Below are positions 2,291 through 32,511 of a stretch of 32,735 nucleotides of DNA, piece after piece. The notes under the pieces are model-generated. The model was not told the DNA's origin. It saw only the letters and a list, made by a program, of their open reading frames with translations, and ran no database searches. The translations under genes were made by a program, and so were the position numbers. Each line of letters begins with the position of its first letter. Position 1 is the first letter of the stretch. The DNA comes from Chloroflexota bacterium. Lineage in GTDB: Bacteria > Chloroflexota > Chloroflexia > QHBQ01. Location: positions 62,001 through 94,735 of the forward strand of contig JAYUUN010000090.1 of the NCBI GenBank assembly GCA_043754535.1. Reading direction: 5' to 3'.

Positions 2291-3511
2291 ATGGACAACC
2301 CCTCGGAAGCAAAGATACCGATCTACGTCGTTGCGGGCTTCCTCGGCAGCGGCAAGACGACGTTGCTGGAGCGGCTGCTGGCTTACGCAGTGGCTCACGA
2401 CCTCAACCCCGGCGTGTTGGTCAACGACTTTGGCACGATCAACATTGATGCGGCTCAGTTGCGGGCGCGGGGGCTGGCTATCGCCGAACTGAGCGGCGGC
2501 TGCATCTGCTGCACCAATGCCAGCCAGTTGCCGCCCGCCGTCAAACGGCTAATCCGCAACGGCTCACGGGCGATCCTGGTGGAGACCAGTGGGCTGGCGA
2601 ACCCACTCGATCTGCTCGACCAGCTAACCATGCCCTGGTTGCTGCCCCAGGTGCAGATTCGTGGTGTGGTCAACCTGGTGGATGCCGCGCATTGGTTCGG
2701 CCTGCCCGCCGACGCAGAAGCTCTCGCCCGCCAGCAGGTGCAGATCGCCGACCTGCTGATCGTCAACAAGCAAGACCTGACCAGCCCTGCCACCCTCGAT
2801 CTCCTCTGTGCCGACCTTCGCACGCTCAACCCCACTGCCCTACAAGTCGTTACCAGCCAGGCTGCGCTCGACCCTGCCCGCGTCTACCGCCTCGAACACA
2901 GCGCGCAAGCAGGCGAGCAGACAGAGCGCATCCACCACAACGCTCGCATCGCCAGTTGCAATGTGCGACTGCCTGCTGCCCTCGACCGCGACTGCTTCGC
3001 CGCCTTCGCTGCTGGGCTGGGGCGCAACGTGTTGCGGGCGAAGGGGCTGGTGCAGATCGCGGGGATGCCAATGACTGCGATCTGGCAGTATCTACCCGGC
3101 CAGCACGAGATCATCCCCTTTGACATAGCGGAGAGCGGGCTACTGGGCAATGTTGCCGTCTTCATCGGTGAGGGGCTGGACGCGACGGAGTTGGAGCGGC
3201 AGGTAGCAGTATGCGCGGCCCAGGATTTATGCCGCCCGCTTGTTCACCTTGCCAATTGCTGCCTGATCCAGCGGCTTGACGATCATTTCGTCTATGTTGA
3301 CGTGTGGTGGGCGGCTGGCGGCCCAAACGATGCACTCGGCCACGTCAGTGGGCGAGAGTGGGGTCAGGCCAGCATAGACGTTCTTCGCTCGTTCCTCGTC
3401 GCCGCGATAGCGCACCACGCTGAACTCTGTCTCCACCAGCCCTGGGTCAATCGAAGTGACGCGCACGCCCTTGCCCAGCATCTCCAGCCGCAAGGTCTGG
3501 CTGATAGCTAG
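2291..3511 (+). CDS. CobW/COG0523 family G3E metallochaperone GTPase; homology ends at ~3225 and the remainder overlaps the SDR
   Basis: GFLGSGKTT, VNDFG, GGCICC, ETSGLANP, NKQD and a CobW_C domain (VLRAKGLV...VFIG). Confidence 0.9.
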   Translation: MDNPSEAKIPIYVVAGFLGSGKTTLLERLLAYAVAHDLNPGVLVNDFGTINIDAAQLRARGLAIAELSGGCICCTNASQLPPAVKRLIRNGSRAILVETSGLANPLDLLDQLTMPWLLPQVQIRGVVNLVDAAHWFGLPADAEALARQQVQIADLLIVNKQDLTSPATLDLLCADLRTLNPTALQVVTSQAALDPARVYRLEHSAQAGEQTERIHHNARIASCNVRLPAALDRDCFAAFAAGLGRNVLRAKGLVQIAGMPMTAIWQYLPGQHEIIPFDIAESGLLGNVAVFIGEGLDATELERQVAVCAAQDLCRPLVHLANCCLIQRLDDHFVYVDVWWAAGGPNDALGHVSGREWGQASIDVLRSFLVAAIAHHAELCLHQPWVNRSDAHALAQHLQPQGLADS

Positions 3512-6123: not shown

Positions 6124-6573
6124 TCAGGCAGTGCGGTCGTGGTAGCTGTGATCGTCCAGAAACGACGTAATGCAGGCAGTCAGCCCCTCACGAACAGCCC
6201 GAAAGGCGGGTAGCTTTGTATCATCGCCACCCACAACACTGGCCGGATCAGCAAAGCTCCAATGTAGCCGCTCAGTTGGCCCAGGGAAGTAGGGACAGTT
6301 GTCACGGGCGTTGTCACAGACAGTGATCACGTAGTCGAACGCCTGGCCCAACAAGCTGTCTACCTGCTTTGGCTGCTGCTGGCTAATATCGATGCCAACC
6401 TCAGCCATAACCTGGACGGCGTAAGGGTTGATGTGGTTGGCTGGCGCACTGCCTGCACTCTGCACCACCACGCTAGTTCTACCTATAGTGCGAAACAAGC
6501 CCTCAGCCATCTGGCTACGAGCCGAGTTGCCAGTACATAGTACCAGCACGTGGATCACCTTGTCTGCTTGCAC
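6124..6573 (-). CDS. arsC: Thioredoxin-type arsenate reductase (LMW-PTP fold), 149 aa
   Basis: P-loop CTGNSARSQMAEG, redox pair VITVCDNARDNCP, HWSFADP. GTG start at 6573 after AAAGGAGG. Confidence 0.9.
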   Translation of the reverse strand: MQADKVIHVLVLCTGNSARSQMAEGLFRTIGRTSVVVQSAGSAPANHINPYAVQVMAEVGIDISQQQPKQVDSLLGQAFDYVITVCDNARDNCPYFPGPTERLHWSFADPASVVGGDDTKLPAFRAVREGLTACITSFLDDHSYHDRTA

Positions 6574-6633
6574 ACCATGCCTCCTTTGGGTAGGCAGGGC
6601 CGCCCGTCGGCAGCCCCACCCCTGGTTGGTCAA

Positions 6634-6723
6634 CTAGCAGCAGGTCTTGCTACCACCACAGCAACTCTCGTCGTCGCAGCACTTGTCGTCCTTGTCACAG
6701 CAGATTGCGTTGATCATTGTCAT
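6634..6723 (-). CDS. 29-aa cysteine-rich mini-protein MTMINAICCDKDDKCCDDESCCGGSKTCC (metallothionein-like)
   Basis: Translated by hand. Perfect RBS AAAGGAGGTGA before ATG-ACA-ATG, four CC pairs, co-oriented between arsR and arsC. Confidence 0.8.
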   Translation of the reverse strand: MTMINAICCDKDDKCCDDESCCGGSKTCC

Positions 6724-6774
6724 TCACCTCCTTTCGGCTTAAGATCGGTCGCTAATTTGTCCCTGCTCCGGAAG

Positions 6775-6792
6775 CATTGACAAACTTCGATG
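6775..6792. promoter_or_regulatory. Putative ArsR operator 2 (CATTGACAAACTTCGATG)
   Basis: Imperfect palindrome, 17/18 identical to the inverted copy at 7262-7279. Confidence 0.7.
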
Positions 6793-6834: not shown

Positions 6835-7242
6835 TTAGGTGCGTTCGGCCAGTGCCAGCGGTATGAAGCTGGCGGTCTGCTGCTCTGCTGGGCTGAAGAT
6901 CGTCGCCAGCATTGTCTGTAGCTCGGCCAGCCGCTCCCGATTGAGGCTATAATAAGACCAGATGCCTTCGCGGTTACCAAAGACCAGACCAGCCTCGCGC
7001 AGAATAGCCAGGTGGTGGGAGATGGTTGGCTGCCCCTTGTCGAACTGAGCAGTCACGTCACAGACGCAAACTGGCTCCTGGTTGTTCGCCAGCATATTGA
7101 GGATGCCCAGGCGGGTCGGGTCAGCCAGCGCATTCAGGATGGCAGCATATTGCTGACTAGTGGAGGCGTTGATCACTGGTGGATTGGCTACAGTGCAGCA
7201 GGCAGTGGGGCGATTGCGCGGGTTGTTCTTACGTTCACTCAT
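6835..7242 (-). CDS. arsR: ArsR/SmtB family metalloregulatory repressor, 135 aa
   Basis: ALADPTRLGIL, VCVCD, QPTISHHLAILREAGLV, YYSL, plus an N-terminal CC. ATG at 7242. Confidence 0.92.
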   Translation of the reverse strand: MSERKNNPRNRPTACCTVANPPVINASTSQQYAAILNALADPTRLGILNMLANNQEPVCVCDVTAQFDKGQPTISHHLAILREAGLVFGNREGIWSYYSLNRERLAELQTMLATIFSPAEQQTASFIPLALAERT

Positions 7243-7248
7243 GTCCCT

Positions 7249-7279
7249 ATCATAACACACTCATCGAAGTTTGTCAATA
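7249..7279 (-). promoter_or_regulatory. arsR promoter TTGACA-17-TATGAT overlapped by ArsR operator 1 (7262-7279); leaderless
   Basis: Minus strand reads TATTGACAAACTTCGATGAGTGTGTTATGATAGGGAC-ATG. Confidence 0.78.
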
Positions 7280-7289
7280 GGTTAGCCGC

Positions 7290-7318
7290 AAAAAAGCCTC
7301 TCTGCGCTTGAGAGAGGC
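7290..7318 (-). terminator. Rho-independent terminator after the PAP2 gene
   Basis: GCCTCTCT-caagcgc-AGAGAGGC followed by TTTTTT on the minus strand. Confidence 0.75.
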
Positions 7319-8207: not shown

Positions 8208-8474
8208 CTAGGCCACTTCTTCCTCGTCCAACTCATCATCTTCTTCCTCGTCGAGGTCTTCGTCATCATCCTCATCATCGAGGTCGTCTTCGTCATCATC
8301 AAGGTCTTCGTCATCATCCTCATCATCGAGGTCGTCTTCGTCATCATCATCTTCGTCGTCTTCGAGGTCGTCGTCTTCGTCGAGGTCTTCGAGGTCTTCG
8401 TCAGCCAACTCCTCATCGGCGAAGCTAACAGGTTGCAGAATCTCCTCGGTCTCCAGTACGGTAGCAGTGGTCAT
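8208..8474 (-). CDS. 88-aa poly-Asp/Glu low-complexity protein
   Basis: AAGGAGG RBS before ATG 8474, its own strong promoter and terminator. 60/88 residues are D/E and there is no K, R or H. Confidence 0.75.
   Translation of the reverse strand: MTTATVLETEEILQPVSFADEELADEDLEDLDEDDDLEDDEDDDDEDDLDDEDDDEDLDDDEDDLDDEDDDEDLDEEEDDELDEEEVA
8254..8349. repeat. Perfect 2 x 48-bp tandem duplication within the acidic ORF
   Basis: 8254-8301 is identical to 8302-8349 and in frame (16 aa). Confidence 0.9.
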
Positions 8475-8544
8475 TACAACCTCCTTGAGTTTTGGGCGGC
8501 TTATTGCCGTTCTGGGGCCATCGCGTTCCGACGCGCCCAAAAGC

Positions 8545-8573
8545 ATTATAGCACGCTCACCCAGTGCTGTAAA
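8545..8573 (-). promoter_or_regulatory. Sigma70 promoter TTTACA-17-TATAAT with extended -10 TG
   Basis: Minus strand reads TTTACAGCACTGGGTGAGCGTGCTATAAT. Confidence 0.75.
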
Positions 8574-8608
8574 CAAGCAGTTTGCCACTTGCCAACCGCC
8601 GGAGCGGG

Positions 8609-8758
8609 GGGCAGCGGGCGTGGAGGACACGCCCGCTACCCAAATTGCAGAGGATGTTTGTGGGGAGGTAGAGGGGTTGGTCGGAGATGTGGCTGTTGCC
8701 AGCGTTAGTCAATTGTAAAGGTCAGCCAATGCTTCTTGCGGAAGCACCAACTGACCTT
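8609..8758 (-). ncRNA. Candidate structured small RNA downstream of the Pho-box array
   Basis: Two long hairpins (8718-8758 and 8609-8641) flank a C-rich single strand. No ORF with an RBS. Confidence 0.35.
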
Positions 8759-23667: not shown

Positions 23668-26600
23668 TTAGCGGACGGTGAACTGGCCGCCATCACTGTG
23701 GCCGAACACGTCGGGGTAGTAGAGTAGCTCGACGTGAGCGGGCAGGTTCATGTACTGGCCGGGGGTAGTCGCCCTGGCGTAGTATTCGTAGACGTAGGTG
23801 CCGGGCGACAGGTAGCTGGCGAACAGTACCGTGCGGTCGTCGCGCATCTCTACGTTGTCGAACGGCCCCCACCGCCACCATCGCCAGCCGTAACCATAAT
23901 CCTCCGTCGGCATACCCGCTGGGTCGGCTACCTGCTGACCGCTGGGGTTCTGCGACCGCTCGGTGAACGAGGTTGTGTTCAGGGTGCCATTCACCCCTTC
24001 CAGGCCCGCTGGCAGGGGGTCGGTGACGAGCAGGTAGTAGGAGGTCTCCGGGGCAACGATGATCAGGCGCACCTTAACCAAATCGCCTGCTTTGGTGCTG
24101 GTGATTGGGCTGCTGCTCTCCACCCCGTTCGTCACCTGGTAGTAGCTACGGTTAATAGCCAATCCTTCGCTGCGTGCCTTGATCCCTTCGCCTGGCACGT
24201 AGTAGCGTAGCGATACCTGATAGTACATCTTGCCCTTGTCGCCCTGGCGGTTGAACTTGAGGTTGCCGAGGGTATTCTGCGGCATCCCGCTGACGGGCAG
24301 GCGCAGGGTAGTGGTTTGGGTCAGGTTGCTGCTGTTCGCTACTCCGTTGCCGAGTGGCTGGTCGAAGGCGGTCACGTTCCAACTGTAGTCGGCTAGCAGT
24401 TCCTTGCTTTCGGCGATGTAGTGGGCGAGGGCGATCAGGCTGATCGAGGTCTCTATCGTAGTCAGCCAATGGCCGTCGCGCTGGGCGGTCATCAGCCAAC
24501 GCACCGTCTTCGGCACTAGGGGGTCGCTGGGGCTGACCGCAATCAGCGCATCCAGGGCGAGGGCGGTTGCACGGTTGTCGGTCGCCATCGACCAGTAGTC
24601 GACCGCGTCTTCCTCCCAGTGCGCGGTTGTGCTGCTCTGCCGTGCGCTGGCTAGCAGGGTGTCTAGCACCTGCTTGGCGGCAACGGGCTGGCCGAGCCTC
24701 TGCAAGGCCATCGCGAGCCACGCCCGCGCATGGTTGCTCATCCGCGCCGATTGTTGCACCAGTAGGGTCGCTTCGCTGCTCAGCGAACCGCTCTGCTGGG
24801 TAGCCTGGGCCAGCACATAGACGGTGTAGGCCCGCATATTGAGGTTATAAACTTCGTCGTAGTCGCGATTGCTCTGCTCCTTGCTGAAGCGTTGCAGCCG
24901 CTCAATGCCCCGTTGCAGCATACTGGCTGGCACGTTGTAGCCAGCATCGCGGGCTGCTACCAGCCCCTGCACGACATAAGCGGTGTTCCACCAGCTTGAG
25001 GGGCCGCGCTCCCACCAGTCCCAACCGCCATCCCCCTGTTGCAGGTCGGCTAGCCGCTTGAACGACTTGTCGAGGATGGTCGGTAGTTCCTTGCTGAAGG
25101 GGGTGGTGCGCCCCTGCTCGCGGTAGGCTTTTTCTAGCACCACTAGTGGTAGGAAGCGGCTGGTGGTCTGTTCGCTGCACTCGTAGGGGTAGATTTCGAG
25201 GTAGCGCACCCCGTCTGCCGTCGCTGCTGCCAGCGAGGGTGAGACCTGCACGACGAGTTCGCCAAGCAGAGGATTGAGGCTGTACGGTAGGAAGATCGCT
25301 TCATCTGCACTGCCGTTGACTTCGCCGCTGGTGGCGACTGCTTCTGGGGCAGCGAAGGGCTTGACCGGCAGGCTCATCTCCACTGCATCTTCATAGTAAT
25401 TGCCGCTGCTGGTGTGTACCCAGTAGCGCAGCCCTGCGGTATCGCCCTTACCGACGGTGCCGAGCCAACCAACGAGTTGCTCCTCGCCAGCCGCGACAGT
25501 CACCGTCTGGCTGGTTGGCCCAGTAATGGTTAGCGCACCACTGGTGACCAGGCTAGCTTCGAGGGTCAGCGGGCCACCAGTGTAGTTGTGGATGATCGCC
25601 TGGGGGCGGGGGCTATCGCCAGTGGTGAGGAAGCGCGGATGCACAGGGCGCAGCAGCAACGGTTGGGTGACGGTGACCACGGTGCTACCCGCCCCAGCCC
25701 GCGTGTTCGCGTCGATGCCCTGGGTGGTCAATCGCCAGGTGGTCAGGTTGTCTGGGAAAGGGATGGCTATGGTGGCAGTGCCGTCTGCGCCAGTTGTCAC
25801 GCTGCCGCGCCAGTAGGCAGTATCGCGGAAGTCGGTTCGTACCTTCTGCGGCGCACTGGGCTGGGCGGCCTTCTGCTCGATTACGCCCGCGTTAGCGGTC
25901 GTGGGAGCAGCACTGCTTGCCACTCTGTCACGAGGTAGGCTGCTTTCCCCGTCCAGCGAGACACTATTCGCGGAATACATCTCATTAACGTAGCCACCCT
26001 CCAGGCCAAAGCTGGAGCCAGTCTGCACCGACACCCCGCGCTCGGCCCAATAGGTGGCGAATAGGTTGGTGGCGTTGTCGGCTTGCAAGGCGTAGATCGC
26101 CTCGTCTACTACAGCTAGAGCGAAGTCGCCTTGTACTGGGCGGCCCGCGCTGTCCTTCGTGCGGAGGGTGACGCTGACCGTGCTGCCGGGCAGGTAGGGT
26201 GACTGACCCTGCGGCTCCAGGCTGACGGTTAGCTTGCGTGGGGCAGTATTGAGGCTGAGATTGAGATAGCCAGAGCGCAAGCTGGCCTGCCGCCTATCCT
26301 GCGGACTGCCAACAGCAGGTGCGGCCACGCCGATGATCGTCAGGTTGAGGTAGACGTTGGGCAGGTCACCGTCTTCTAGCGGCACCTCGATAGTCGGCGC
26401 GCCCCCTTGCAGGCTGATCACCCGATAACGCTTGAGGTGGCCCCGCTCGATGGTCAGCAAAGCAGTGGCCTGGGTGTAGGGCGAGGTGATCAGGATGCGG
26501 GCGGTGTCACCGACGTTGTACTGCGGCTTGTCGGCCACCAGCTTGACCGCGTTCTCGTTGTCAAACCGCCAGGGGATGTAGTCGTAGCCGCTGCTGGCGA

Positions 26601-29600
26601 CCCACAACTGCACCCGCGTGTGGATCGTGTTGCCCCGTGTGTCGCGGCTCTCGGCTTGCACGCTGTAGTCACCGGCCTGCTGCGCCGTAAAGTAATAGCT
26701 GGCCCGGCCCTGCGCGTCGCTGCTGACGGTGGCCGTGCCAGCCTCGTTCTCGACCAGCCGATACTGCTCGTTGCTACCGTAGGTGGGTGCCACCCACTCA
26801 CGGCGGATGAAGGTCAGCTTGACGCTGGCGTTGGGGTGCAGGCTACCGTCGGCGTTGACCGTTCGCACAGTAATCGTGGTTGGCTGTTTGGCGGTGGCAA
26901 TATACTCGGCGCGCAGGCCAACGTAGAACTGACCCTGATGCACGATGGTGGTGGTGTTGGCGGCCACGGTCTGGTTGCTCAAGTCCTGCACCTGGCCCTC
27001 GATCAGCACGCTCTGGCTGCCTGCCGTGGTGCTAACGTACTGGGTGACATCCACCGTGGCGTAGCCTGCTTTGTCGCTGCGGGTCTGGAAGCTGCTAGTT
27101 TGCGGCTGCTCGCTCGGCTGGGGGAGGCCATAGCGATCAGTGGCGTAGTAGCTGTAGTAGGGCGGCTGTTCGCCAAAACTGTAGCTCTCACCGCTAATCG
27201 GGTCGCTCCAACCGAAGTAGTAGGGGCTGGTTTGCAGGTTGATCGTCGTCGTCACGTTACTGAGCGGGCCACCGAAGTAGTAACTGGTCTGCACCGTAGC
27301 GGTGATCGGGTCGCCCTTGATCGAACTCTCCTTCGCGGATACATCTACTTTGAAGTCGGGCTTCCGGTACTCCTGCACGCTAAAACTGGCATTGGTGTCG
27401 AAGATACCGTCACTACCAGTGTTGACATCCAGGCTGTAGCTGCCAACCGGCGCATCGCTGGGTAGGCTGAACTGGCCGTTGGTGGTGCCAAGTTGTGAGA
27501 TGCTAGTGGTGCCAGTATAGATCACGCGCTCACCATTGTTGGTGCGGGCTGTGACCCGCACCGTTGCCAGCTTGGCAGCAAGCGGCAGGCTGTAGCTTGC
27601 GTCATCGTCGGCGCGGAAGACAGCACGGTAGTAGACAACCTGGCTGGGACGGTAAATCGGGCGGTCAGTGTAGGCCGCTGACCGCTGTTGGCTGCTGCCA
27701 GAGGCATAGGACGCGTTCAGCCCAGCGTTCCGATTGCTGCTGACGAAAGCGACATCACCCTGCTGCGCCCCGATAACGACCAGGATGCTCCCCTCGGCAG
27801 CCGCGGCTAGCTTGAGGCGCACGGTACCATCGGCACCGGTGGTAACACTCTGGCTGACGGCGGCCAACTTGAACGGCCACTGCTCCACGCGCAGAGCATA
27901 GTTTGCCTTCGGCTTGCCATTGGCGAGGTCAACCGCCCAGACCAGCAAATCCCTGCCCTCGCGCTTGGTGACCAGCCCAGTGCGGCCAACGACAAGGACA
28001 GCCGCGCCTTGCAGGGGGTATTGGCTTGCGTAGGGGTTGGCAGCGGAGACCCGCACGAAGTAGTAGCCGACGGGTAGGCGGTCACCCTGCCCATCCAGGC
28101 TGAGGGGCAGATAGTTGATGCTAGCCTTGCTCACGCTCTTTGTCACCGCCGCCGTCCAGGTGCGTTTGAGCGTGCCTGGGTAGACAGGGGTTGGTTGATA
28201 CTCGCGGGTGGGCTGCAAGGCTTCCCGCAAGTCGGCTTCGCTGAATTGGTAGAGTTCGAGCTGCACCTTGTCGAGGTTGACCGCATCCACACGCAGGCGG
28301 GCGGGATTGTCGGCAAGGAGCGGCTGCCATTGGCCGCCCTTTACCTCCAGGCTGGCGGGCAGCGGCCCAATCTGCACTTGCCACTCGGCGGACGCAACAT
28401 CGAAGCCCCACTTGTCCTTCAACCCCGCCTTGAGGCTGAAGCGGTAGGTGGTGTCCGCCAGCAAGCGCAGGCCGCTGCTGTAAACGGTGGTGCCAGCAGA
28501 GTCGATCTCCAGCCTGCCAAGATAGCCCTCTGGCTTTGGCTCAACCGTCAGGTAGGAAGAAACATCCTGGCTCGGCTTGAGCGGGTTGTTGAAGGTGAAG
28601 CTGAAGCTGTCACTGGGCTGGGGCTGGCCGTTATCGTTACTGGGGTAGTGCGCCGAGACGCGGGTAGCGGTGGTGGAGAAGAACGAAAAGCCAGCGGTGG
28701 GTTGCTCAAGCTGCACGCTGGTCCCAGTGGCAGCCTTGACCGCACCGAAGCTGGCGCGATAGCCCTGGCTAAACTTGAGCAGGTTGGTGGGCGTAAAGAC
28801 GAAGCTACTGCCCTCATCGTTCCAGGCGAAGCGGCCAGCCACGCGCTGCTCACCCTGCAAGGTGAAGGCTTGCTCGACCGAGGGGCGATCCATCGGCTGG
28901 TTGAAGCTGACGCTGATTACGCCATCCAGCGGCACGGTGTAACCTTGCGGCGCGAAGCTGGTGATCGCGGGGCGGATCGTGCTAAAGCTAAAGCTGCTAG
29001 CCTGGGCCAAAGGAACGCCGCTGTAGTCGGGCCAACCTGCCTTGACGCTGATCACATAGTCGGTGGCGGGGGCGAAGCCGCTATCGGCTCGGAAGCCAAC
29101 CGCCGCCGTCCCCAGCCAGACCCAGCGGCCAGTCACCGCCGGGCTGATCGTCAGCCACTGGCTGGCATCTGGCTGATTGTCCAAGGCAGTCAGTGGGATC
29201 ATTGGGCGGCTGAAGCTAAGGCTAACCAGCACATTGATCGGCACCTCCTTTGTCCCCGCGCTAGGCAGCGTGCGAAGGATGGTGGGTGGGGCTGCGGTGA
29301 GGAAGCGGGCGACTAGCGGCGCAGCCAGTACCTTCCCTCCTACGGTGCGCGCCGCCGCTGCCACGTTGACTGTATAGACTGTGCTGGCCCGCAAGGGTTG
29401 GGCGGGGGTAAAGAGCAGCGTGTCGCCCTGCCAGGCGTAGCTACCAGGGGCGGCAGGGTTGAGGCTGAAGGCCGCCTGCGCCGACTGCTGATCCATAGGC
29501 TCCGAGAAGGTGACGGCCAGCGGTGCTGCCCCACTGATGTCGCCTGCCCGCATACCCACCCCAGCGGTTAGGCCCAGGACGTGGGGGCCAGCGATCACCA

Positions 29601-29931
29601 GGCCTGGCTCAGGGGTGAAGGTGGCTGCCCCATCGGGCAACTGCGCCCGCACTGTCGCCAGAGGGCCAGCGGTCGGGCTAGCAGCCAGTGGCGTGGCAGT
29701 AAGCAACAACGCCACGGCAGTAGGGCTGGCTGGCTCTATTGTGCGGCTGACGGTTGGTAGTATAGCAACCACGGTAGCGGTAGGGGTGGCATTGCCTGCG
29801 AAGGGTGAGAGGGGACTGGCAGCCCAACCGACCAGCGCAACGATCAGCACGAGGGCTGCGCCAGCGGCAAACGGCAAGCGTGGATGAGCGGGAGGAGGGT
29901 TGCCCGGTGTGCTGGTCTGACTATCGTTCAT
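23668..29931 (-). CDS. Alpha-2-macroglobulin family protein with N-terminal TM anchor and several Big_5-type Ig domains, 2087 aa
   Basis: TDRPIYRP, EYRKPDF, LAVVDEA, RTDFRDTAYW, PDNLTTWR, thioester YPYECSEQTTSR, DPLPAGLE, C-terminal YYPDVFG. Ig repeats with FSEPMD/FSRPM/FNQPMD. Confidence 0.95.
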   Translation of the reverse strand: MNDSQTSTPGNPPPAHPRLPFAAGAALVLIVALVGWAASPLSPFAGNATPTATVVAILPTVSRTIEPASPTAVALLLTATPLAASPTAGPLATVRAQLPDGAATFTPEPGLVIAGPHVLGLTAGVGMRAGDISGAAPLAVTFSEPMDQQSAQAAFSLNPAAPGSYAWQGDTLLFTPAQPLRASTVYTVNVAAAARTVGGKVLAAPLVARFLTAAPPTILRTLPSAGTKEVPINVLVSLSFSRPMIPLTALDNQPDASQWLTISPAVTGRWVWLGTAAVGFRADSGFAPATDYVISVKAGWPDYSGVPLAQASSFSFSTIRPAITSFAPQGYTVPLDGVISVSFNQPMDRPSVEQAFTLQGEQRVAGRFAWNDEGSSFVFTPTNLLKFSQGYRASFGAVKAATGTSVQLEQPTAGFSFFSTTATRVSAHYPSNDNGQPQPSDSFSFTFNNPLKPSQDVSSYLTVEPKPEGYLGRLEIDSAGTTVYSSGLRLLADTTYRFSLKAGLKDKWGFDVASAEWQVQIGPLPASLEVKGGQWQPLLADNPARLRVDAVNLDKVQLELYQFSEADLREALQPTREYQPTPVYPGTLKRTWTAAVTKSVSKASINYLPLSLDGQGDRLPVGYYFVRVSAANPYASQYPLQGAAVLVVGRTGLVTKREGRDLLVWAVDLANGKPKANYALRVEQWPFKLAAVSQSVTTGADGTVRLKLAAAAEGSILVVIGAQQGDVAFVSSNRNAGLNASYASGSSQQRSAAYTDRPIYRPSQVVYYRAVFRADDDASYSLPLAAKLATVRVTARTNNGERVIYTGTTSISQLGTTNGQFSLPSDAPVGSYSLDVNTGSDGIFDTNASFSVQEYRKPDFKVDVSAKESSIKGDPITATVQTSYYFGGPLSNVTTTINLQTSPYYFGWSDPISGESYSFGEQPPYYSYYATDRYGLPQPSEQPQTSSFQTRSDKAGYATVDVTQYVSTTAGSQSVLIEGQVQDLSNQTVAANTTTIVHQGQFYVGLRAEYIATAKQPTTITVRTVNADGSLHPNASVKLTFIRREWVAPTYGSNEQYRLVENEAGTATVSSDAQGRASYYFTAQQAGDYSVQAESRDTRGNTIHTRVQLWVASSGYDYIPWRFDNENAVKLVADKPQYNVGDTARILITSPYTQATALLTIERGHLKRYRVISLQGGAPTIEVPLEDGDLPNVYLNLTIIGVAAPAVGSPQDRRQASLRSGYLNLSLNTAPRKLTVSLEPQGQSPYLPGSTVSVTLRTKDSAGRPVQGDFALAVVDEAIYALQADNATNLFATYWAERGVSVQTGSSFGLEGGYVNEMYSANSVSLDGESSLPRDRVASSAAPTTANAGVIEQKAAQPSAPQKVRTDFRDTAYWRGSVTTGADGTATIAIPFPDNLTTWRLTTQGIDANTRAGAGSTVVTVTQPLLLRPVHPRFLTTGDSPRPQAIIHNYTGGPLTLEASLVTSGALTITGPTSQTVTVAAGEEQLVGWLGTVGKGDTAGLRYWVHTSSGNYYEDAVEMSLPVKPFAAPEAVATSGEVNGSADEAIFLPYSLNPLLGELVVQVSPSLAAATADGVRYLEIYPYECSEQTTSRFLPLVVLEKAYREQGRTTPFSKELPTILDKSFKRLADLQQGDGGWDWWERGPSSWWNTAYVVQGLVAARDAGYNVPASMLQRGIERLQRFSKEQSNRDYDEVYNLNMRAYTVYVLAQATQQSGSLSSEATLLVQQSARMSNHARAWLAMALQRLGQPVAAKQVLDTLLASARQSSTTAHWEEDAVDYWSMATDNRATALALDALIAVSPSDPLVPKTVRWLMTAQRDGHWLTTIETSISLIALAHYIAESKELLADYSWNVTAFDQPLGNGVANSSNLTQTTTLRLPVSGMPQNTLGNLKFNRQGDKGKMYYQVSLRYYVPGEGIKARSEGLAINRSYYQVTNGVESSSPITSTKAGDLVKVRLIIVAPETSYYLLVTDPLPAGLEGVNGTLNTTSFTERSQNPSGQQVADPAGMPTEDYGYGWRWWRWGPFDNVEMRDDRTVLFASYLSPGTYVYEYYARATTPGQYMNLPAHVELLYYPDVFGHSDGGQFTVR

Positions 29932-31422: not shown

Positions 31423-32511
31423 ATGTCAGACCCTTTCATTGGCGAGATCAAGATGTTCGCCTTCGACTTCCTCCCGAACGGCTGGCGGTTCTGCGATGGG
31501 CAGTTGCTGTCGATCAGCCAGAACACGGCTCTCTTTTCTCTGCTTGGCACCAACTATGGTGGCGATGGGCGCACCACCTTCGCCCTGCCCGACCTGCGTA
31601 GTCGCGCTCCTCTCCACTACGGCCAGGGGCTGGGCCTCAGTGCCTACAGCCTCGGTCAGACGGGCGGCGAAGAAAGTCACACCCTGACCAGCAACGAGAT
31701 GCCTAGCCACAGCCACACCGTGCAGGCCAACAGCGGCAATGGTACCAGCACCACGCCAACCAGCAACTACTGGGCAGCATCGTCACAAGGTAACAACCTC
31801 TACTCGGCCAGTGCCGACAGCCTGATGAATGCTGGGGCCATCGCCAATGTCGGCGGCCAGGCCCACGAGAACCGCCAGCCTTTGCTGGCCCTCAACTACT
31901 CCATTGCCATGCAAGGTATCTATCCCTCGCGCAGTGCAGCCCCGACTGCTGCCCCCGCTGACCGCCCCCAAAATGCTACGCCCTACCTGGGCGAGATCAT
32001 CATGTTCGGCAGCAACTTCGCCCCGGCGGGCTGGGCGTTCTGCAACGGGCAGCTACTCGCCATCTCGCAGAACGATGCTCTTTTCTCCCTGCTCGGCACC
32101 ACCTACGGGGGCGATGGACAGAGTACCTTTGCCCTGCCCGACCTGCGCTCGCGTACTGCGGTTCACCGTGGGCAGGGGCCGGGCCTCAGCAGCTACATCA
32201 TCGGCCAGGCGTTGGGGGTGGAGCAGGTGACGCTGAGCAACAACCAGTTGCCTAGCCACAGCCACGCCGCCCGCGCTCAGTCCGCAGCAGGAGAGAGCAA
32301 GCTACCAACCGGCAACTACTGGGCGCAGAGCACGAACGGTGACCTGCACTACAAGGATAGTGCAAGTCAGAGCCTCGCTGCTGCCAGCATCTCCACCGCC
32401 AGCGGCGGCAGCCAGCCGCACCAGAACATCCAACCCTACCTGGCGACCAACTTTGTAATCGCGGTAGAGGGTATTTATCCCTCGCCAGGACTAGCTGAAG
32501 GAGGCAACTAA
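31423..32511 (+). CDS. Tandem fusion of two phage tail-collar / MdpB-like (microcystin-dependent protein) units
   Basis: Two copies of P[FY][IL]GEI.MF...W..C.GQLL.ISQN.ALFSLLGT.YGGDG..TFALPDLR...H.N.QP.LA...IA..GIYPS joined by an Ala/Pro linker. Confidence 0.9.
   Translation: MSDPFIGEIKMFAFDFLPNGWRFCDGQLLSISQNTALFSLLGTNYGGDGRTTFALPDLRSRAPLHYGQGLGLSAYSLGQTGGEESHTLTSNEMPSHSHTVQANSGNGTSTTPTSNYWAASSQGNNLYSASADSLMNAGAIANVGGQAHENRQPLLALNYSIAMQGIYPSRSAAPTAAPADRPQNATPYLGEIIMFGSNFAPAGWAFCNGQLLAISQNDALFSLLGTTYGGDGQSTFALPDLRSRTAVHRGQGPGLSSYIIGQALGVEQVTLSNNQLPSHSHAARAQSAAGESKLPTGNYWAQSTNGDLHYKDSASQSLAAASISTASGGSQPHQNIQPYLATNFVIAVEGIYPSPGLAEGGN

Follow-up and report, generated by a model that had tools for sequence, protein, structure and literature searches.

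Bacterial arsenic defence has been described as reduction, efflux and methylation, and a gene-encoded arsenite sink is absent from the reviews that we searched. In the SmtB–SmtA system the metallothionein gene smtA is divergent from smtB, while phytochelatins, in which an acidic residue stands beside Cys, are made enzymatically and are not gene-encoded. BmtA/SmtA metallothioneins are about 50–70 residues long and have His ligands (PMC12193353); cysteine-rich metallothionein binds As(III) (PMC11590777). The As(III) site of the repressor CgArsR consists of two N-terminal Cys and one Cys of a C-(V/A)-C motif (PMC11672702), and according to a 2018 review an aquaglyceroporin and ArsC alone can confer arsenate resistance (PMC6205960).

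The gene described here encodes a Cys-rich micropeptide (6634..6717, minus strand) and lies in the window, the whole 32,735-nt stretch of Chloroflexota DNA that we analysed. Judged from its sequence and from those of its relatives, the gene is real, conserved and unannotated, and belongs to an undescribed peptide family in an ArsR regulon; the function deduced for its product is probable. The minus-strand translation of 6634–6723 is MTMINAICCDKDDKCCDDESCCGGSKTCC followed by a stop, with eight Cys in four CC pairs, spacers of 5, 4 and 5 residues and a final CC next to the stop codon; the first-pass annotation, which named no strand, had described the pairs and their spacing exactly so. Its 29-residue product with a perfect ribosome-binding site holds in part: the Shine–Dalgarno (SD) sequence AAAGGAGGTGA (6724..6734, minus strand) is present, but it touches the first ATG (6723) with zero spacer, the second ATG (6717, codon 3) being 6 nt downstream. 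Because initiation needs some spacing between SD and ATG, translation probably begins at ATG 6717 and would yield 27 residues. Upstream of the homologues in three other genomes (G002, G004 and G044) AAAGGAGGTG is also found. The peptide has 8 Cys in 27 residues, no His and no aromatic residue, and thus the attributes of the functional class of metallothioneins, being small, very rich in Cys, poor in aromatics and gene-encoded; on direct reading, the window peptide shows neither a signal peptide nor a leader, however short. In the 3.87-Mb genome, three of the 1761 SD-led ORFs of 12–45 residues reach a threshold of at least 5 Cys and 20% Cys, and this ORF alone has four CC pairs. Moreover, the ORF reads identically in contigs of four public sequencing runs, which belong to four studies (this DNA may itself stem from one of them); with every base in agreement, the ORF is not an assembly artefact.

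The gene order, all on the minus strand, is arsR (7242–6835, PF01022), the peptide ORF and an arsC-like gene (6573–6124, PF01451), the ORF lying 60 nt upstream of arsC; the family matches of both flanks bear out the earlier placement of the ORF inside an arsR–arsC module. The ORF had also been placed directly behind an ArsR-type operator. There is indeed an operator upstream, between arsR and the peptide gene (O2, 6776..6792, an imperfect palindrome ATYGA-N6-TCRAT that is putatively bound by ArsR), but the 43 nt between O2 and the AGGAGG core of the peptide SD make "directly" slightly loose. The 3.87-Mb genome has just two exact copies of the 17-bp sequence ATTGACAAACTTCGATG, one at 6776–6792 and one, inverted, at 7262–7278, where it forms operator O1 and overlies the −35 box of arsR. 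The arsR promoter (7249..7278, minus strand; TTGACA-17-TATGAT, with an extended −10) is thus overlapped by O1, and no consensus promoter was found on the coding strand between arsR and the peptide gene. A terminator-like hairpin with a T run (7297..7315, minus strand), recognized by its match to consensus, would close the upstream PAP2 gene and insulate the module. Immediately 3′ of the peptide stop stands a 13-bp GC-rich stem–loop (6592..6621, minus strand), of marginal stability by itself (z −1.65; 12 of 200 shuffles equally stable); it carries two changes in a genome of the same genus (G001), both of which preserve pairing, and a strong stem–loop follows the stop in most homologues. It is likely to be an mRNA-stabilizing or partial-termination element. 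The fold of the peptide–arsC junction, in turn, was not stabler than shuffles (z −1.22).

The arsC-like gene (6124..6573, minus strand) has its own SD (6587–6580) and encodes, from GTG 6573, an ArsC-like arsenate reductase of 149 residues with the LMW-PTP fold. Its product matches the arsenate reductases 8P5N and 1JL3 in the PDB, with the CX5R loop and the distal Cys pair that mark thioredoxin-coupled ArsC aligned, and scores 122.9 bits with its best NCBIfam model, TIGR02691, below the cut-off of 174.3. Most of the Chloroflexia ars loci inspected (L001–L030) have one operator before arsR and another just behind it; the second precedes arsM, acr3 or the peptide gene and is possibly a natural second block against read-through. 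Elsewhere in the window are a 140-residue ORF with a long Asp/Glu run and no Pfam match (8208–8630, minus strand), in a region also present in G001, and four genes that are not linked to the peptide gene, encoding a KNTase-like nucleotidyltransferase (913–1914), a CobW metal-chaperone GTPase (2291–3511), a bacterial alpha-2-macroglobulin (23668–29931) and a protein with two phage tail-collar domains (31423–32511).

The repressor (6835..7242, minus strand; 135 residues) matches PF01022 and scores above the cut-off of NF033788. Its best PDB match is CgArsR (6J0E, E 2.7e-15), with the N-terminal CC aligned, and it has C-V-C in alpha3; with both site elements present it is, by its residues, of the As(III)-sensing CgArsR type, and the claim of a repressor of the As(III) type stands. 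When the 25 nearest ArsRs are read by eye, 19 have the C-V-C element (16 with an N-terminal CC, 3 with C-I-C), and the other six have CC or CCC together with a C-terminal CC. The host genome also has a second ArsR (L031:3519-4950, on contig G000:C126), 55% identical, with C-V-C and no N-terminal CC, which heads trxB; an operator with one mismatch is found at this arsR–trxB pair, which may supply the reductant of ArsC.

In G001 the peptide gene is unchanged (0 of 84 nt differ), while arsR differs at 25 of 405 nt and arsC at 30 of 447 nt, together 55 of 852 (6.5%), so that conservation of the peptide gene relative to its flanking genes has P of about 0.004 under a uniform rate. The sole difference in the 29-codon ORF is in the codon between the two ATGs. 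We inspected the ars loci of the 30 best ArsR matches among 61 relatives and found an SD-led Cys-rich ORF of 19–28 residues in 11 of the 30, a lower bound, several loci being short or ending at a contig edge, and a count that draws on three unpublished genomes, one with a CPCP-type positive (G034) and two among the 19 negatives (G007 and G015). Its patchy occurrence, in 11 of 30 loci, implies that the peptide is dispensable. The four-CC type occurs in five genomes, the host (G000), G001, G002 (MRVYADNCCSDNCCDDNCCGDKRCC), G004 and G044 (MYDSCCDDGCCGGCCPPCC), and so reaches a second genus (G002 and G004) and another family (G044); an identical peptide, in the same layout, is present in L076, a record titled Chloroflexia bacterium. 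The second type, with CPCP or CxC runs, is found in 6 of the 30 loci, directly behind arsM. In G002 and G004 the order is arsR–operator–arsM–arsC–operators–peptide; hence, the peptide ORF is not an arsM remnant and is not always upstream of arsC. A lack of conserved ORF or Cys pattern in relatives would have spoken against the first-pass proposal of a minimal ArsR-regulated chelator; the relatives do not refute it, and it is supported in part.

Several further features of these loci were seen. The CPCP..CxCDDGCC type (22–28 residues; L012:2785-2865, L014:448-534, L025:435-512, L028:419-502, L143:2787-2855 and L190, at about 1492–1418 on the minus strand) and the four-CC type have a CDD-x-CC end in common. 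The N-termini of ArsM (L035:2317-2430 and others) have an Asp/Gly-rich CC-x3-8-CC segment similar to the free peptide. In G004, but not in G002, an inverted-repeat element some 200 nt long intervenes between operators and peptide gene (L036:3480-3730); behind the peptide gene of G004 there is an ORF of 115 residues (L036:2935-3282, minus strand) with IACSL and RVCCPF motifs and no Pfam or NCBIfam match. Behind the peptide gene of G044 (L020:1-1350) and of a Thermobaculum record (L067:1972-3772) come a small membrane-protein-like ORF, a gene for a phosphate transporter of the PiT family, and arsC. A partial second copy of the peptide segment, with a hairpin, lies about 600 nt downstream of the first in L070 (3281-3491), a locus with no arsR.

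Wider searches extend the family to two phyla, Chloroflexota and Actinomycetota, with named records from Thermobaculum, Anaerolineales, Gaiellaceae and Actinomycetes. A motif scan for an SD followed by CC[DE]D-x1-2-CCG, a pattern that leaves operator and neighbours outside, gave 58 matches (21 in the genome collection and 37 in metagenomes), of which 33 are in-frame SD-led ORFs of 15–29 residues with 25 distinct sequences; near-identical metagenome matches are included, so that these counts are not of independent events and overstate independence. ArsR is present in the locus of 28 of the 33 ORFs and of none of the 25 other matches, and an exact operator lies within 200 nt upstream of 24 of the 33, again against 0 of 25. 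The five ORFs without ArsR are in L069, L070, L078, L115 and L123, and L115 and L123 have less than 150 nt of upstream sequence. Within the fetched flanks of the 33 loci, the neighbours include ArsC in 18, ArsM in 4 and Acr3 in none. Actinobacterial loci have the peptide gene and arsR(-arsC) in divergent orientation, on either side of two operators. A test that takes no account of cysteine, with operator plus SD as the pattern, was run on 151 genomes from the class to which a Gaiellaceae genome belongs and gave 22 distinct sites: 7 of the 11 that are linked to ArsR, one of them in the seed genome (6 of 10 without it), lead into peptides of 13–20 residues with 5–7 Cys (for example, MSCCEGGCGCGCGCC and MSGECCKPGSDCCSGDDCC), versus 0 of the 11 unlinked sites. 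The remaining four ArsR-linked sites lead into arsC-like genes, arsR or arsM. In 201 Chloroflexia genomes the same test gave 17 sites, five with a Cys-rich peptide, four already known and one new. The new copy (G011, L190) is solitary: no ars gene lies within 1.5 kb of it, and it has its own TTGACA..TATAAT promoter and two operators, which suggests that the peptide itself is likely to be the regulated product. A looser three-CC pattern was set aside, since off-frame CTG repeats made it match 232 of 301 genomes of the class. An HMM built from 20 peptides recovered 3 of its 5 source genomes and none of 301 genomes of the phylum; as it missed G000 itself, its blank is uninformative on range.

What the family keeps is its composition. 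The 23 distinct peptides counted (L078 and L123, kept among the 33, were left out as probable chance or atypical matches) have 31% Cys, 19% Asp, 19% Gly and 0.4% His. Spacers and N-terminus vary, with 2–4 CC pairs or CxC runs, and TGC and TGT are both in use as Cys codons; thus the 4 × CC motif of the first-pass annotation with its 5/4/5 spacing, exact here, is not a signature of the family. A composition that is kept while spacing varies is as expected for a chelator. No known family was matched, in keeping with the earlier statement that the Cys pattern is unlike those of known bacterial metallothioneins: in Pfam neither the peptide nor any of 10 homologues matched a family with E up to 1, a search of low power with such short queries; NCBIfam gave none for the peptide; a PDB sequence search had no match at E 10; and PF02069 was found in none of five genomes, with the Synechococcus control positive. 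Exact matches of nine peptides were absent from a collection of 15 billion proteins, an outcome that depends on the choice of start, and a 32-residue CPCP-type relative scored at best 0.79 (unnamed) and 0.76 (Metallothio_5) in the ESM Atlas, too low to count as matches. The literature searched has no description of ArsR-controlled Cys micropeptides, although an earlier mention is possible, for example in small-protein catalogues or supplements.

We consider it probable, if well short of certain, that the product is an arsenite-induced, metallothionein-like chelator of As(III), with the eight Cys as ligands. This is because the ORF is conserved and linked to ArsR and its operator, the ArsR is of the As(III) type, ArsC and ArsM are neighbours and no usual pump was found. 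ArsR would occupy O1 and O2 and be released by As(III); the arsR promoter would then drive arsR, the peptide gene and arsC, with O2 as a second block, and the strong SD and the 3′ stem–loop would yield far more peptide than ArsC. As ArsC reduces arsenate to arsenite, the peptide, presumably cytoplasmic and unstructured, may take up as many as about two As(III) per eight Cys in three-thiolate sites, a figure that we infer from the coordination in ArsR and from the binding of As to metallothionein. Bound arsenite could so be buffered during a slow exit via GlpF or, in relatives, its methylation by ArsM. Counting against the chelator are the cost of stoichiometric sequestration, the presence of GlpF together with the aquaglyceroporin/ArsC route to resistance, and the acidic residues and CC pairs, which would equally suit Cd, Zn, Cu or Hg. 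In addition, the words metallothionein and peptide are not used in the accessible sections of the 2018 review of ars genes (PMC6205960).

The prominence of ArsC and ArsM, the commonest neighbours after ArsR, would also suit a shuttle or thiol partner, that is, a minimal ArsD-like carrier from ArsC to ArsM or to a channel, or a redox donor for ArsC or ArsM. The C-terminal CC-x5-CC-stop has the spacing of Cys112-113/Cys119-120 in E. coli ArsD (PMC4562236), the ArsM N-termini in these genomes bear similar CC..CC segments, and the CPCP-type peptide stands directly behind arsM in its six loci. However, the chaperone site of ArsD is Cys12/13/18 in a folded domain, none of the five family genomes G000–G004 has an ArsD match, the peptides have no conserved non-Cys surface for a partner, and the would-be partners vary, some copies having ArsR only or standing alone. 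A shuttle seems unlikely to us for these reasons. Quite unlikely, too, is a general metallothionein for soft metals (Cd, Zn, Cu or Hg), or a thiol buffer, whose induction only accompanies that of arsenic genes. The repressors belong to arsenic-sensing types, the genes regulated along with the peptide are arsC, arsM and arsN1, and His, a Zn ligand in SmtA and PmtA (PMC12193353), makes up only 0.4% of residues, even though the family has 31% Cys and many Asp, its Actinomycetota copies are divergent from the repressor gene, like smtA from smtB, and a CobW metal-chaperone gene lies 3 kb away in the window.

The position of the ORF, 60 nt before arsC, raises the prospect of a cysteine-sensing leader peptide whose translation controls arsC, in the manner of mycobacterial polycysteine attenuators; for attenuation a pair of adjacent Cys codons can be enough (bioRxiv 10.1101/834739), and one predicted fold pairs the arsC SD (MFE frequency only 0.0016), although in the local fold the SD is free. 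Yet the mycobacterial attenuators are leaderless first genes of cysteine-metabolism operons, whereas the window ORF is SD-led and the genes downstream are not related to cysteine. In addition, the ORF comes last, after arsM–arsC, in G002 and G004, is divergent from arsR–arsC in Actinomycetota and has a convergent gene behind it in L075 and L089; divergent, last or stand-alone copies argue against a leader peptide, which we regard as very improbable. For a RiPP precursor, for example of an arsenic-containing or thioether peptide, one could point to a short Cys-rich ORF with a strong SD and a 3′ hairpin, and to ArsM, a methyltransferase whose gene is close by in 4 of the 33 loci. No radical SAM, YcaO, lanthipeptide, peptidase or peptide-exporter family was found among 39 neighbouring ORFs from 13 loci, however, and none adjoins the peptide gene in the window; the N-terminal segment, of 1–13 residues and unconserved, is too short for a leader. 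With neither leader nor modifying enzyme in these loci, membership among RiPP precursors was rejected, and we give the idea hardly any credence. Least credible of all is an ORF that arose by chance or was left behind when arsM was deleted. Although arsM occupies this position in relatives and the N-termini of ArsM bear CC..CC, G002 and G004 have both an intact arsM and the peptide gene, and the ORF is fully conserved in G001 and recurs across phyla.

If the product is the As(III) chelator that we favour, a further and more tentative idea is that widespread poly-Cys peptides of 13–29 residues form a pump-independent means of arsenic resistance, a sink for the arsenite made by ArsC that replaces Acr3/ArsB where these are lacking; we regard it as doubtful. 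In the host genome, which is 89% complete, so that a pump may be missing from the assembly, acr3, arsB, arsP, arsK, arsJ, arsD and arsM were not found, and the aquaglyceroporin GlpF is encoded in a glycerol operon without the operator. acr3 was found in none of 19 peptide-bearing genomes tested (0 of 12 Chloroflexia and 0 of 7 actinobacterial); the acr3 tallies draw in part on the unpublished genomes G034, G007 and G015. Against comparison groups that include genomes not checked for the peptide, this is 0 of 12 versus 12 of 49 in Chloroflexia (p 0.10, not significant) and 0 of 7 versus 67 of 144 in the actinobacterial class sample (p 0.018, becoming 0.58 on even-numbered genomes only, a rough stand-in for lineage). 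The anticorrelation is thus a lead only, and its actinobacterial part appears confounded by lineage. G002 and G044 encode ArsB-like permeases whose scores fall short of the curated cut-off; with no operator within 1.5 kb either, these were not counted as ars pumps, which they could nevertheless be.

Were this so, the peptides would rank as the smallest metallothioneins of bacteria and as the first dedicated to arsenic. Should they bind As(III), ars operons would hold a component too short for gene callers, soil and sediment bacteria might retain arsenic instead of exporting it, and a very small natural As-binding module would be at hand for biosensing or bioremediation.

Among known systems, SmtB–SmtA/BmtA (PF02069; also BxmR–BmtA and AzuR–NmtA) resembles the family in having a small Cys-rich product under an ArsR/SmtB-family repressor, with sequestration as presumed function. 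In contrast to SmtA, which has 56 residues and binds Zn via Cys and His, the family has 13–29 residues, is nearly free of His, has CC pairs and no PF02069 match, and is linked to repressors of the As(III) type and to ars genes; with 27 residues, half the size, no His and no such match, the window peptide was rejected as a member of BmtA/SmtA. MymT of Mycobacterium tuberculosis is likewise a small Cys-rich metallothionein of an actinobacterium; it is larger, with a different Cys pattern, and serves copper detoxification outside any ars context, whereas our peptide has no family match. ArsD (PF06953) is also an ars-operon product with vicinal Cys pairs, among them a C-terminal CC-x5-CC, but it is a folded protein of about 120 residues that serves ArsAB through its Cys12/13/18 chaperone site; membership was rejected, there being no Pfam match and only the C-terminal CC-x5-CC spacing in common. 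The polycysteine attenuators of mycobacteria are, like the peptide genes, unannotated short ORFs with consecutive Cys codons; they are leaderless, come first in cysteine-metabolism operons and act in cis, whereas the family is SD-led and variable in position and orientation, and membership was rejected on SD, variable position and downstream genes that are not cysteine-related. Finally, the family recalls phytochelatins and eukaryotic metallothioneins, poly-thiol peptides that sequester As(III); unlike phytochelatins, it is bacterial, ribosomally made and placed under an ArsR operator.
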